Made by a program: the position numbers and the translations under genes. 64,000 nt of DNA from Escherichia phage PNJ1902, in sequence record OK254197.1; one strand, 5' to 3'. Positions 29,083-63,751 of this stretch are shown piece after piece; positions within the stretch are counted from its first letter, which is position 1; each line of letters begins with the position of its first letter. Under the pieces are notes generated by a model. It did not search any database, was not told the DNA's origin, and worked only from the letters and a program-made list of their open reading frames with translations.

Positions 29083-29110
29083 GGTTAAAAAGAAAGGGGC
29101 CGAAGCCCCT
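29083..29110 (-). terminator. Stem-loop terminator/attenuator between D11-like and SbcD-like genes
   Basis: AGGGGC-CGAA-GCCCCT tetraloop hairpin followed on the minus strand by TTCTTTTT. Confidence 0.45.
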
Positions 29111-29117
29111 CTATTTA

Positions 29118-29891
29118 TTAGTCGTCCAGATCGCTTGCAGCTTCTGTGTCAATACCTTTCTGGGAACCTGCATTGCTATTACCAGATTTGGCATCATCAT
29201 CTTTATTCTCACGACCCTCCATGAAGGCTAGAATTGCTTCTTTCTGCTCTTCATAGGTAGGAACCGGATAGGTTTGTTCCAGAGAAGGAACTTTTTCGAA
29301 CTTAATGATGTCGCCATCTTCATCACACATAGCTTCACCGATCAGATCTACATCCGCAGCATACTGCTTGGATTCCGCACTGTTAGGATCTTGCAGCTTA
29401 ATCTGGAACTGCATAGCAGCAATCTGCTGTACATCATACTCAGTATCGAAACCTTTACCTTTTTTCTCGATAGAAATATCAATATCAAACGGAGTTGCCA
29501 GACTCAACTGCTTCATGATAGACTGGATGCCTTTCAGAATAGTAGCCTTGACTTCCATTACTTTCAGTTTGTTATCAGAACGGTCGATAACAAAAGCGAT
29601 ATAGTTTTTCTTCGGTTTCAGCGGAACACGATTACCATCTTTATCCAGCTCTTTCTCGAAGAAGCCCATCTCATGAACCGGATCAGCTTTACCACGAACA
29701 AAGCTCTCTTTGTCACGGTTAAAACGGAGACATTCGAAAGGAGCTGCGTTACCATCTTTATTAGTCAGCCAATAGACATAACGTGGAAGAACACCAGAAA
29801 CGATACGGACACGAGTGATACCGTTGTTGAACTTCAGGAATTCGATTTTATCGTTAGAACCGCCAGTAGTTTCGCCCCAAGACTTAGCCAT
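29118..29891 (-). CDS. D11-like protein; possible ssDNA-binding protein (acidic C-terminal tail)
   Basis: 257 aa; RBS AGAGGA; C-terminal ...DTEAASDLDD acidic tail; host-optimal codon usage. Confidence 0.5.
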   Translation of the reverse strand: MAKSWGETTGGSNDKIEFLKFNNGITRVRIVSGVLPRYVYWLTNKDGNAAPFECLRFNRDKESFVRGKADPVHEMGFFEKELDKDGNRVPLKPKKNYIAFVIDRSDNKLKVMEVKATILKGIQSIMKQLSLATPFDIDISIEKKGKGFDTEYDVQQIAAMQFQIKLQDPNSAESKQYAADVDLIGEAMCDEDGDIIKFEKVPSLEQTYPVPTYEEQKEAILAFMEGRENKDDDAKSGNSNAGSQKGIDTEAASDLDD

Positions 29892-30269
29892 ATTTTATTT
29901 CCTCTTTAAAGATTAATTTTGATTTGTTAATTGCGATTAGTGGGTTAGTGTCGATTACTAAACGTGGTATCCATACTGGAACATATTGTATGTCCAAACT
30001 AGGATCGTTTGTAAACTTGTATTCGGCATAATTTCGTAGACTTAAAATTCCTAGATATTCTGCCAGTTGTCTATTAGACAATTTATTTGGATTATCAACT
30101 ATTGTTGATTCATTCAAAATGAATGAGGAACCGACCAATAATTGGTGAGCATCAGGCTCTGTAAGAATTCTTTTGAATAACTTAATAATTAGGTCGGAAT
30201 TTCCTCTAGCTAGTAAGTATAGCTTTTCATAATCGAAGAATTTAATTTTTGTTTTCTCCTCGAATTTAT

Positions 30270-30306
30270 GTATATATTATACTAGATTTCGAGAGAATTT
30301 AGCAAC
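30270..30306 (-). promoter_or_regulatory. Early promoter (minus strand)
   Basis: TTGCTA - 18 bp - TATAAT followed by ATATACATAAATT box typical of this promoter family. Confidence 0.55.
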
Positions 30307-30375
30307 TAAAATTTTTATTTTTCTGCTTCGGACTTTCTTATCAATCCGAAACTTTCTCTCTCAAATTTATGTATA

Positions 30376-30406
30376 TATTATACATCATTTATGAGCTGTT
30401 GCCAAA
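30376..30406 (-). promoter_or_regulatory. Second tandem early promoter (minus strand)
   Basis: TTGGCA - 17 bp - TATAAT plus CATAAATTTGAGAGAG discriminator, nearly identical to the neighbouring promoter. Confidence 0.4.
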
Positions 30407-31741
30407 TGCAATTTTAGCTAATTGAACTGCTTTCTCCGGAGTCATAGTAATAGTTTTCCACCCATTATTACGATATACTGCCATACGTCCAGAAGCCTGT
30501 CTTAGTCCAGTGCCGCCTTTCATAATTAGATCTACAACAATAGGGTCGAGTTTACCCTCGACAATACGTTGAACACGTCCTGCAAGCTGTTCGATGAGAG
30601 ACTCATTATTAATAAGACTTCCCATTATTAAACAAGACAACTCATTAAGAGAAATACCTTCAGAGAAGATACTTTGAGCTGCTGCAAGTACACAGGGTCC
30701 ACCTTTTGCTATATCTTCCTGAATTTTTAATCGGTCATCTAAGTGGGTTGCCCCTATAATTTCATATGTTGTAACACCACGCTGTGTAAGAGCTTCTAGT
30801 ACTGTTTGGATTAACTCTGTTCTATCACTTACAATGAGTACTTTATGCCCCATATTCACGTATAAATGTGCCAGGTTTATAATAGTCTCTCGATATTCAG
30901 GATGATTATACACATCGTTAGCACGTAATGCCCACGGTACGTTTTGGTTTCCTGATAACTCAACAGGCACGGAGTACCTATGGATTGTAGGTGCAACAGT
31001 ATTATTAACCGGCGGACTAAAGATCTTATATCCAAAGAAATCTTTGAACATAACTTGTAGACCATCTTTCCGTTTTAATGTTCCAGATAGTCCAATCTTA
31101 TAGCGAGCGCATGATATTTCTAGGAAGTTAGTGAAAGTTGTAGCCACACAATGGTGAACTTCATCAACTATAACAGTACCGAATACTTTAGAAAGATTAT
31201 TCGCATGTTTATTCACTGTTTGAATATTACTGACCACAATTGGCGGATCAATATTGTACTTCCCAGAACCTATGATGCCTGGTTCAAACCCAAACCATTT
31301 ACGAACTTCTGCTGCCCACATCTCACGAATGGATGTATTCGTACATATTACCAGAGTTTTCTGGCCAAATTTATATGCAAGTGCAAGAGCTAGGATAGTT
31401 TTGCCAAATCCGGGCTTACCATTAATAATACAGGTATCATCACACTCTTCATATATTGGGAGCTGGTCTTCTTCACGCAGTTTGAACTTAGGTTTTGGTA
31501 TATCTACCGGGGCTAATGTGCGTTTATCAACTAATTCGTATTTTACTCCTTTAGCATCTAGTAAATCCAGACGCGTGATAGGAATCCACTTAATCTCTTT
31601 AGCAACAACACCACTATTCTTATACATAATAGGGTATTTACTAGTCATTGTCTCTATGTGATAAGTGGTTTGCTTACTACAATAATCCCAAAGTTCATCA
31701 TCGGGCTTGAAATAGGCTTTATTAGATATAACAACCTTCAT
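30389..31741 (-). CDS. SF2-type DNA helicase (D10-like)
   Basis: 450 aa; Walker A GKPGFGKT, DEVHH box. Confidence 0.8.
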   Translation of the reverse strand: MKVVISNKAYFKPDDELWDYCSKQTTYHIETMTSKYPIMYKNSGVVAKEIKWIPITRLDLLDAKGVKYELVDKRTLAPVDIPKPKFKLREEDQLPIYEECDDTCIINGKPGFGKTILALALAYKFGQKTLVICTNTSIREMWAAEVRKWFGFEPGIIGSGKYNIDPPIVVSNIQTVNKHANNLSKVFGTVIVDEVHHCVATTFTNFLEISCARYKIGLSGTLKRKDGLQVMFKDFFGYKIFSPPVNNTVAPTIHRYSVPVELSGNQNVPWALRANDVYNHPEYRETIINLAHLYVNMGHKVLIVSDRTELIQTVLEALTQRGVTTYEIIGATHLDDRLKIQEDIAKGGPCVLAAAQSIFSEGISLNELSCLIMGSLINNESLIEQLAGRVQRIVEGKLDPIVVDLIMKGGTGLRQASGRMAVYRNNGWKTITMTPEKAVQLAKIAFGNSS

Positions 31742-41564: not shown

Positions 41565-42237
41565 ATTTCAAGGCAGCCTTAACAGCTTCATTAATTAATG
41601 AAATTACTTCTTCACGAGTCCACTTGTACCCTAGAGATTTTACGTCAACCCCTAATTTTTCCAGATGTTTAACAGAAGCCAGCTCGTAATTCATATAATG
41701 GACGTTCTGTTGTTTGCCTTCTGATAGAAGCCATACACGATAGCAACCAACAGGATTATCCATTGCTTTTTTGATTTCACCAATACACTGGTATCCAGGA
41801 ACCCAAACAAGCTCACCAACTGCAAATTCTTCTGCTACAGCATCATCAGGAATAATTGGAGGATTCAATGGATCTACAATATCGTTCAAACGAAGTAGAG
41901 CACCATATCGTTCCAGAACAGATTTAACCATTGCTACAGAGCGGTAATTACGATCGGCAATTTCTTCGAAAGAATCACCAGATAAATACTGCTCAATAAC
42001 GTTAGCTAACTCAATGCCTTCAATGAGTGTGCCACGTTTCTTTTTCTTCATTTCGGCAACTTGAATCTGGCGGTCTTGCCATTCTTCAATCATCCTTTCC
42101 ATAGTTGGATTGGATGATACGCCGAGCATTTCACATGCTGCTTTCTTAGTACCACCGTTCTCCAGATGCTCTATAACCTTTTTAAAGACTTCATCCGGGA
42201 TTTCATGGATATGTTTCTTTCTACGAGAACCAGCCAT
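41533..42237 (-). CDS. Putative HTH DNA-binding protein (possible regulator)
   Basis: 234 aa; N-terminal HTH-like GGTKKAACEMLGVSSNPTMERMI; immediately downstream of a PN25-like promoter. Confidence 0.55.
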   Translation of the reverse strand: MAGSRRKKHIHEIPDEVFKKVIEHLENGGTKKAACEMLGVSSNPTMERMIEEWQDRQIQVAEMKKKKRGTLIEGIELANVIEQYLSGDSFEEIADRNYRSVAMVKSVLERYGALLRLNDIVDPLNPPIIPDDAVAEEFAVGELVWVPGYQCIGEIKKAMDNPVGCYRVWLLSEGKQQNVHYMNYELASVKHLEKLGVDVKSLGYKWTREEVISLINEAVKAALKFDKEKGKRRE

Positions 42238-42268
42238 ATTTAAACTCCTCTCTCAAATTTATGAATCT

Positions 42269-42297
42269 ATTATACAGAAAAATTTTCCTGAAAGCAA
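42269..42297 (-). promoter_or_regulatory. Strong early promoter, near-identical to the classical T5 PN25 promoter
   Basis: Minus strand reads AAAATTTATTTGCTTTCAGGAAAATTTTTCTGTATAATAGATTCATAAATTTGAGAGAGGAG: A-rich UP region, TTGCTT, 17 bp, TATAAT. Confidence 0.8.
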
Positions 42298-42305
42298 ATA
42301 AATTT

Positions 42306-63722: not shown

Positions 63723-63751
63723 TTGCTAAATGCCTTTAAATTCTGTATAAT
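63723..63751 (+). promoter_or_regulatory. Early promoter firing into ORF-free region at window end
   Basis: TTGCTA - 17 bp - TATAAT then ATATTCATAAATTAGGG; almost identical to the promoters at 59017 and 60874. Confidence 0.65.

Follow-up and report, generated by a model that had tools for sequence, protein, structure and literature searches.

The DNA between the D10 helicase gene and the D11-type gene of Escherichia phage PNJ1902 quite probably holds a standard T5 early-gene cassette, in which a tandem of strong sigma-70 promoters (P31A and P31B) stands before a gene for a 120-aa protein starting at an ATT codon, with the D11 gene next in line. The 64,000-nt stretch of sequence record OK254197.1 that was analysed is referred to here as the window. 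Judging from its homologues, the stretch of 350 nt after P31B is a conserved protein-coding gene, homologous to T5.125 and belonging to the phrog_4258 family, and it is coding over its full length of 120 codons. According to the start-site features presented below, the gene most likely begins at the ATT at 30246. T5 records already contain both promoters and the gene, while the start at ATT, 26 codons earlier, is likely new.

The window comes from a T5-like phage (Tequintavirus). A 901-nt query across the region matched 441 phage records, 206 of them with an identity of at least 95%, and the closest records (98-99% identity) are Tequintavirus by classification. Every gene at this locus is carried on the minus strand (Table 1). 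The first-pass annotation had described an intergenic region of 500 bp at this site. The frame of its 84-aa ORF is however open upstream to 30275 and the segment 30246..29884 is coding, which reduces the real non-coding gap between the D10 helicase gene and the 120-codon gene to 142 nt (30388..30247). At the other end, the stop of the 120-codon gene overlaps the start of D11 by 8 nt, and the D11 gene's own Shine-Dalgarno sequence (AGAGGA) sits within the 3' end of the 120-codon gene.

Table 1. Features of the D10-D11 locus, in positions of the window.
Feature	Position	Strand	Basis or remark
D10 helicase gene	31741..30389	-	stop at 30391-30389
Promoter P31A	30370..30405	-	consensus scan and T5 RefSeq annotation; -35 box TTGGCA 30405-30400, -10 box TATAAT 30382-30377
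Hairpin	30325..30352	-	folding; +19 to +46 in the transcript predicted for P31A
A/T-rich tract AGAAAAATAAAAATTTTAG	30306..30324	-	directly 5' of the P31B -35 box
Promoter P31B	30269..30305	-	consensus scan and annotation in three T5 records; -35 box TTGCTA 30305-30300, -10 box TATAAT 30281-30276
Shine-Dalgarno GAGGAG	30256..30261	-	sequence reading; 9 nt before ATT
120-codon gene, T5.125 homologue	29884..30246	-	proposed start ATT 30246-30244; stop TAA 29886-29884
Codon 27 of the 120-codon gene	30166..30168	-	ATT (Ile) in the window
D11-type single-strand DNA binding protein gene	29118..29891	-	phrog_1607, E = 5.8e-106

The ORF at 29884-30138, which according to the first-pass annotation needs a TTG start without RBS, can indeed begin at TTG 30138 in the window, but 36 extra codons lie 5' of that TTG, headed by an ATT with a strong Shine-Dalgarno sequence. 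The translation of the whole frame aligned with phrog_4258 from residue 2 to residue 120, on profile positions 2-120 of 120 (E = 7.5e-61). Nineteen homologues, with identity down to 44%, are mostly 116-122 aa long and have the N-terminal block FFDYEK-LLA-GNS in common. A profile search against 1.8 billion cluster representatives led to 299 relatives and, among the 150 relatives listed, most align their own first residue to profile position 1. Additionally, AlphaFold2 predicted a fold for the 120-aa protein with a pLDDT of 93.9 and a pTM of 0.88, of which residues 1-30, consisting of a strand and two helices, are the top-confidence part (pLDDT 96-97). Concerning the annotated relatives, the protein of the window is 97-99% identical to the T5.125-type orthologues, and the T5 orthologue itself (T5.125, T5p123 or 'D10-3'') occupies the same place directly upstream of D11. 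In the T5-type records inspected, T5.125 starts at codon 27 and has 94 aa, whereas phrog_4258 and the distant homologues have about 120 aa. The annotations of Epseptimavirus and Sugarlandvirus also give a protein of about 120 aa, in contrast to the 94 aa of the T5-type records. Specifically, Stitch and Sw2 (Epseptimavirus) annotate the 120-aa version with an ATG, and in the records of Stitch, Sw2 and Sugarland the gene is 117-120 codons long and has a ribosome-binding site.

Codons 2-26 are, by their substitution pattern, conserved as protein under frame-specific purifying selection. Compared with Stitch, the window has 12 synonymous differences in 15.5 sites and 5 non-synonymous differences in 59.5 sites when these codons are read in frame (pN/pS 0.11, binomial P = 1.3e-5), while the shifted frames of the same 75 nt gave pN/pS values of 0.60 (2 stops) and 4.45 (6 stops). 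Among 23 Tequintavirus sequences, the polymorphic sites were 5 synonymous and 1 non-synonymous (P = 0.002), a test resting on the sparse variation of 6 sites in the N-terminal extension. This within-clade result matters most, because the Tequintavirus sequences are without an ATG at codon 1. No stops or indels were found in codons 2-26 across the Tequintavirus sequences, whereas the short untranslated leader beside them does have indels at the Tequintavirus loci. The 350 nt, for which the first-pass annotation had suggested a regulatory leader or small RNA, evolve in this way as protein-coding sequence.

At the start position, ATG is found in 6/6 Epseptimavirus IMG/VR loci and in Stitch, and ATT in 22/22 Tequintavirus loci and in the window. 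GAGGAG is located upstream of the ATT in all 22 of these Tequintavirus loci with a spacer of 8-10 nt, and the ATT sits 23 nt after the predicted start of P31B. From the in-frame stop at 30278-30276 to the ATT there is no ATG, GTG or TTG. A 42-nt query with the ATT context matched 210 phage records, of which 185 are exact, and its ATG version had no exact match among phage records. No CDS is annotated over the ATT in any of the matching records listed, and the T5-type records inspected contain either a 94-aa protein from the ATG of codon 27 or no gene at all. The 94-aa product in these records can be attributed to the fact that gene callers do not consider ATT, and our results would correct a truncation of the 120-codon gene by 26 codons. 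ATT is also present in L036, a diverged clade with about 55% protein identity, at a distance of 7 nt from AAGGAG. In general, ATT goes with the strongest Shine-Dalgarno sequences; Stitch, which has an ATG, bears GAGAGA. In the window, a Shine-Dalgarno sequence plus an ATG also comes after most of the remaining promoters of this motif family, spaced roughly as the ATT is from P31B.

The internal ATG at codon 27 is, on the comparison of the aligned sequences, not the real start. It is present in 22 of the 23 Tequintavirus sequences, the window being the exception with ATT, and members of the family have M, L or I there. The ATT variant that the window has at codon 27 occurs in 0 of 208 phage records, and this singleton change from ATG to ATT could be a sequencing error. 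No Shine-Dalgarno sequence is found in the window before codon 27 or before TTG 30138. In a local hairpin predicted at the start site, the Shine-Dalgarno sequence of the ATT pairs with codons 3-5 (-6.1 kcal/mol), and such pairing could further reduce initiation. A masking of the Shine-Dalgarno sequence from upstream by the P31B spacer, confined to P31A or read-through transcripts, was rejected because the pairing with codons 3-5 occurs in both transcripts once the coding start is included, and because the pattern is not common to Stitch or L036. An out-of-frame ATG at 30230 (MKSYTY*) was considered a by-product of two neighbouring codons, TAT-GAA, and Stitch does not have it.

Bacteria are known to start genes at AUU, though rarely, and infC and pcnB do so in E. 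coli; as a start codon AUU is inefficient and IF3 discriminates against it (PMC5499595). The gene described here resembles infC and pcnB in having AUU at the start position with a good Shine-Dalgarno sequence upstream, both conserved across the clade, and a limited, IF3-sensitive translation would be expected by analogy (PMC5499595). In contrast to infC and pcnB, its product is unrelated to the translation machinery, its close relatives use ATG, TTG or GTG, and AUU initiation is here a prediction from the sequence. The literature provided nothing specific on T5.125 or on AUU/ATT starts in phages, and no peptide, ribosome-profiling, toeprint or reporter data on ATT initiation were found in it.

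The two tandem minus-strand promoters that the first-pass annotation had placed here were recovered as sigma-70-type sites by the consensus scan. P31A reads TTGGCA-17-TATAAT (30405-30377) with 11/12 consensus matches and P31B reads TTGCTA-18-TATAAT (30305-30276) with 10/12, and the T5 RefSeq record (NC_005859) annotates a promoter P31A and a promoter P31B at the homologous D10-D11 positions. A second T5 record presents 'repeat c copy 7' and 'putative early promoter T5P38' at the matching sites, and the P31B site is a 'putative promoter' in another T5 record; all these features are labelled putative or given without a basis, with no experimental mapping cited, and no T5 transcription-start map was found in the literature. 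P31A and P31B of the window are the same elements as those of the T5 annotation, in a close relative. The -35 box and the spacer of P31A overlap the final codons of the D10 helicase gene. In Sw2, a HNH endonuclease gene separates the helicase gene from P31A, and P31A is kept intact there as non-coding DNA, with the helicase codons of T5 included, which argues for its upkeep as a promoter.

The two promoters had also been described as near-duplicates, and they do form a direct repeat of 31 nt with 87% identity and an offset of 101 nt, including the exact 19-mer TATAATATATACATAAATT. They are not, however, the outcome of a purely local duplication. With up to 3 mismatches, the 19-mer has 9 copies in the window, where chance would give 0.09, and therefore P31A and P31B are members of a promoter family. 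One of them, at 42256-42274, proved to be the classical PN25 promoter of T5 when checked against a published template. The -35 box is of the TTGCT type at 8 of the 9 copies and TTGGCA at P31A; the upstream A/T block is present at 9/9, and the family, P31A and P31B included, shares the initial transcribed motif ATAAATT(T/C)GAG. The two promoters thus agree with the PN25-type T5 early promoters in the -35 and -10 boxes, in the A/T block and in the initial transcribed motif, but P31A is unusual within the family, as it is followed by a hairpin instead of a Shine-Dalgarno sequence and a start codon. The +1 positions are predicted at A 30370 for P31A and at A 30269 for P31B, by analogy with the N25 initial transcribed sequence, which we take to be AUAAAUUUGAG....

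The hairpin between the promoters, already noticed in the first-pass annotation, was confirmed as GUUUCGGAUU-(8 nt)-AGUCCGAAGC at 30352-30325, with a stem of 10 bp and a loop of 8 nt. It appears in the minimum-energy and the centroid structures alike, the 124-nt segment containing it folds better than 200/200 shuffles (z = -4.08), and it has one copy in the window. The terminator scan did not flag it as an intrinsic terminator and there is no U-tract 3' of it but AGAAAAAUAAAAA instead, so that P31A is not predicted to give a short terminated RNA. From the predicted +1 of P31A through the hairpin into the A/T tract, the Tequintavirus and Epseptimavirus loci are identical, apart from one loop variant; codons 2-26, beside this conserved non-coding segment, differ at 17/75 nt between the window and Stitch (Epseptimavirus). 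Sugarland keeps the stem with a rebuilt 5' arm and a loop of 3 nt, and the 3' arm together with the A/T tract is identical as far as Sugarland. The hairpin is absent in L036, L037 and L040. The other promoters of the window that bear the motif have the same A/T block before their -35 box, and the tract AGAAAAATAAAAATTTTAG corresponds to this upstream block of the T5 promoter family. Candidate roles for the hairpin are those of a 5'-proximal stabiliser, a processing site of the P31A transcript or a protein-binding site. A conserved small peptide encoded after P31A was rejected, as the short frames across the hairpin in T5 and Sugarland lie in different frames. An inverted repeat acting as an operator of fixed spacing is less likely than a hairpin, which better fits the shortening of the half-site spacing from 12 nt to 3 nt in Sugarland.

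In the explanation that we propose, the transcripts of P31B would probably start at A 30269 and have a 23-nt leader bearing GAGGAG, and the 120-aa protein would probably be translated from ATT 30246, a weak codon discriminated against by IF3. Such a weak start behind very strong promoters would yield little 120-aa protein, and D11, having its own Shine-Dalgarno sequence and ATG, would be abundantly produced from the same transcripts. P31A, located 101 nt upstream, would add transcripts with the conserved hairpin in their 5' part. The rationale of low expression is suggested by the weak or awkward start contexts recurring across clades. Among the clades with an untranslated leader, L040 has GTG with GAGGG, L041 and L043 have ATG with a weak Shine-Dalgarno sequence and L046 has ATG with AAGGAG. 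In phiR201 and L037, TTG is located one nt after the proximal TATAAT, and in Sugarland ATG is located four nt after it. The ATG of L048-52 follows directly after the proximal -10 box and that of L057 overlaps the box. With the proximal -10 box abutting or overlapping the start codon, transcripts of the proximal promoter cannot encode the protein and carry the ORF as an untranslated leader of D11. The idea of a leader in the first-pass annotation holds in this form for the proximal-promoter transcripts of several relatives, whereas the 350 nt of the window are a gene. More tentatively, T5 and its near relations (about 210 phages) may keep a conserved AUU-initiated gene just before the D11 gene, in which the IF3-sensitive start and the strong Shine-Dalgarno sequence, behind very strong promoters, would set a low, host-state-dependent ratio of the protein to D11, and related clades may reach the same end via UUG/GUG or a -10 box over the start; we hold this reading to be plausible, short of probable. 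If true, the start is mis-annotated in all the T5-type records inspected. If confirmed, the gene would be a phage example of conserved AUU initiation, in a tractable system that offers T5, E. coli, strong promoters and close relatives with ATG.

Three other explanations were weighed against the cassette. The suggestion of the first-pass annotation that the roughly 350 nt after P31B form a structured regulatory leader or a small RNA, with a spurious ORF, can draw on a 391-nt stretch that folds better than its shuffles (z = -3.15), on the lack, for this ORF in the window, of any ATG, GTG or TTG having a ribosome-binding site, and on the proximal -10 box of phiR201, L037, Sugarland, L048-52 and L057, which lies at most 4 nt from the start codon or overlaps it. 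It did not survive the comparison with the full-length phrog_4258 match and the 299 protein cluster representatives, the frame-specific excess of synonymous differences and the predicted protein fold, and no Rfam family came near its threshold (the best matches in the scan of the region reached 18.9, 15.2 and 14.1 bits, where the gathering scores are 100, 35 and 55). The hairpin also lacks a U-tract, and we consider a leader or small RNA at this place extremely improbable. A gene decaying in this particular phage, with both ATGs lost, no protein made and the stretch serving as the 5' UTR of D11, would account for the ATT at codon 1 as well as at codon 27 in the window and for a codon 27 change that is unique among 208 records. 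The 120-codon frame is nevertheless intact, the protein is 98-99% identical to its relatives with no non-synonymous excess, and M27I is a conservative replacement, the family having M, L or I there, which makes decay very improbable.

A further, unlikely reading is that the Tequintaviruses make a truncated protein only, of 94 aa from the ATG of codon 27 (in the window, of 84 aa from TTG 30138), and that codons 1-26 are a relic. Every T5-type record inspected has the 94-aa call or no gene, the codon 27 ATG is nearly constant in the Tequintavirus sequences (22/23), and AUU is inefficient as a start codon (PMC5499595). Against a truncated protein, neither codon 27 nor the TTG has a Shine-Dalgarno sequence before it, whereas a strong one is kept exactly before the ATT, and codon 27 encodes Leu or Ile in many members of the family and is ATT in the window. 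A relic would also be difficult to reconcile with codons 2-26 having 5 synonymous versus 1 non-synonymous polymorphic sites within the clade and no stop or indel beside a leader that does have indels, or with residues 1-30 being the most confident part of the predicted fold.

Returning to the 120-aa protein of the preferred reading, Pfam gave no hit for it or for 10 distant relatives, PHROGs matched it to the family of unknown function alone, no match of the PDB fold search had an E-value below 1, and the BFVD matches were to uncharacterised homologues only. Sequence profile matches in PDB were designed helical repeat proteins only and were judged spurious. A helix-turn-helix protein was rejected too, the best PDB matches being FNR/CRP with E-values of 1.4 or worse and a probability of at most 0.08. 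The LAEYLG motif of the protein resembles a helix-turn-helix merely to the eye. One may reasonably guess at a D11-related role, and the ATT start, if confirmed, would also point to a small, structurally novel partner of D11 in T5 replication or recombination. In all contexts examined, namely the window, T5, Sugarland, Vibrio phages and five metagenomic contigs (relatives of 137-144 aa), the gene is located directly upstream of the phrog_1607 D11-type gene and usually overlaps it. In most of these contexts, the pair is established inside a block of PolA, helicase, SSB, SbcD and SbcC genes.

Five relatives have the -10 box of their proximal promoter either overlapping the start codon of phrog_4258, the T5.125 homologue, or at most 4 nt away from it. 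With the box in this position, transcripts from the proximal promoter must be devoid of the start codon, and the ORF can only serve in them as a leader of D11. The pair formed by phrog_4258 and the phrog_1607 gene of the D11-type SSB is kept even in metagenomic relatives with a length of 137-144 aa, usually with overlap of stop and start. In two relatives' loci (L061 and L062) a gene other than a helicase gene lies next upstream, and the SSB, SbcD and SbcC genes still follow downstream. The coordinates of these features, along with others described here, are collected in the table below.

Location of the features described in the window, in relatives' loci (L), among sequence-search matches (H) and among database entries
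Feature	Location	Strand	Remarks
phrog_4258 followed by phrog_1607 (D11-type SSB)	window 29884-30246 + 29118-29891; L057, L058, L060, L061, L063		
Proximal -10 box near phrog_4258 start	L006 900-950; L037 85-115; L007 1245-1275; L048 ~680-705; L057 17-46		
Short BFVD entry A0A2H4PRI8	Proteus phage PM135		92 aa
Short BFVD entry H6WXA1	Vibrio phage pVp-1		67 aa
Classical T5 PN25 promoter	window 42230-42300	-	compared with published template sequence
Further promoters of the same motif	window 38857, 40032, 48955	-	
Further promoters of the same motif	window 60897, 62224, 63746	+	
G+C-rich hairpin directly 3' of D11	window 29093-29112		terminator score on both strands
HNH/homing endonuclease gene, helicase gene-P31A interval	L066 (Salmonella phage Sw2) 408-938; H71, H72, H86, H87		

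N-terminally short proteins occur among the database homologues (P0003, P0016, P0018 and the BFVD entries A0A2H4PRI8 and H6WXA1). Both P0003, which is T5-type and 97% identical, and P0018 have the internal Met encoded by codon 27 as their first residue; inspection of the P0018 contig sequence showed that its full-length frame starts at ATT. P0016 starts at an internal Met, because its TTG start adjoins the -10 box. Concerning the proposed ATT start in the window, the Shine-Dalgarno sequence UCGAGGAG is able to pair with codons 3-5 (UUCUUCGA), leaving AUU in the loop (30233-30262, minus strand; -6.1 kcal/mol). The significance of this pairing is doubtful, since it is absent in both loci compared, those of the Epseptimavirus Stitch and of L036 from the diverged ATT clade.

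The non-coding stretch running from the predicted +1 of the putative promoter P31A through the hairpin and into the A/T tract (30312-30370, minus strand) is the same in Tequintavirus and Epseptimavirus loci, with the exception of one loop variant; the neighbouring codons 2-26 differ between the two groups at 17 of 75 nt. The copy of the 25-mer AAAGTCCGAAGCAGAAAAATAAAAA from this stretch in Klebsiella phage Sugarland is identical as well.

The PN25 promoter of the window does not differ from the published template over the part compared, which spans the upstream A/T block through the ribosome-binding site, and has an ATG downstream. Five of the six further promoters of the motif family precede a short leader with an ATG at its end, while no start codon was found within 45 nt of the one at 63746. 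The hairpin that follows D11 corresponds to the putative terminator annotated 3' of this gene in T5. Finally, the helicase gene and P31A are separated in some Epseptimaviruses by a gene for an HNH or homing endonuclease. In Sw2, the one whose sequence was read, the 3' end of the helicase gene differs and the P31A sequence is kept intact 3' of the endonuclease gene.
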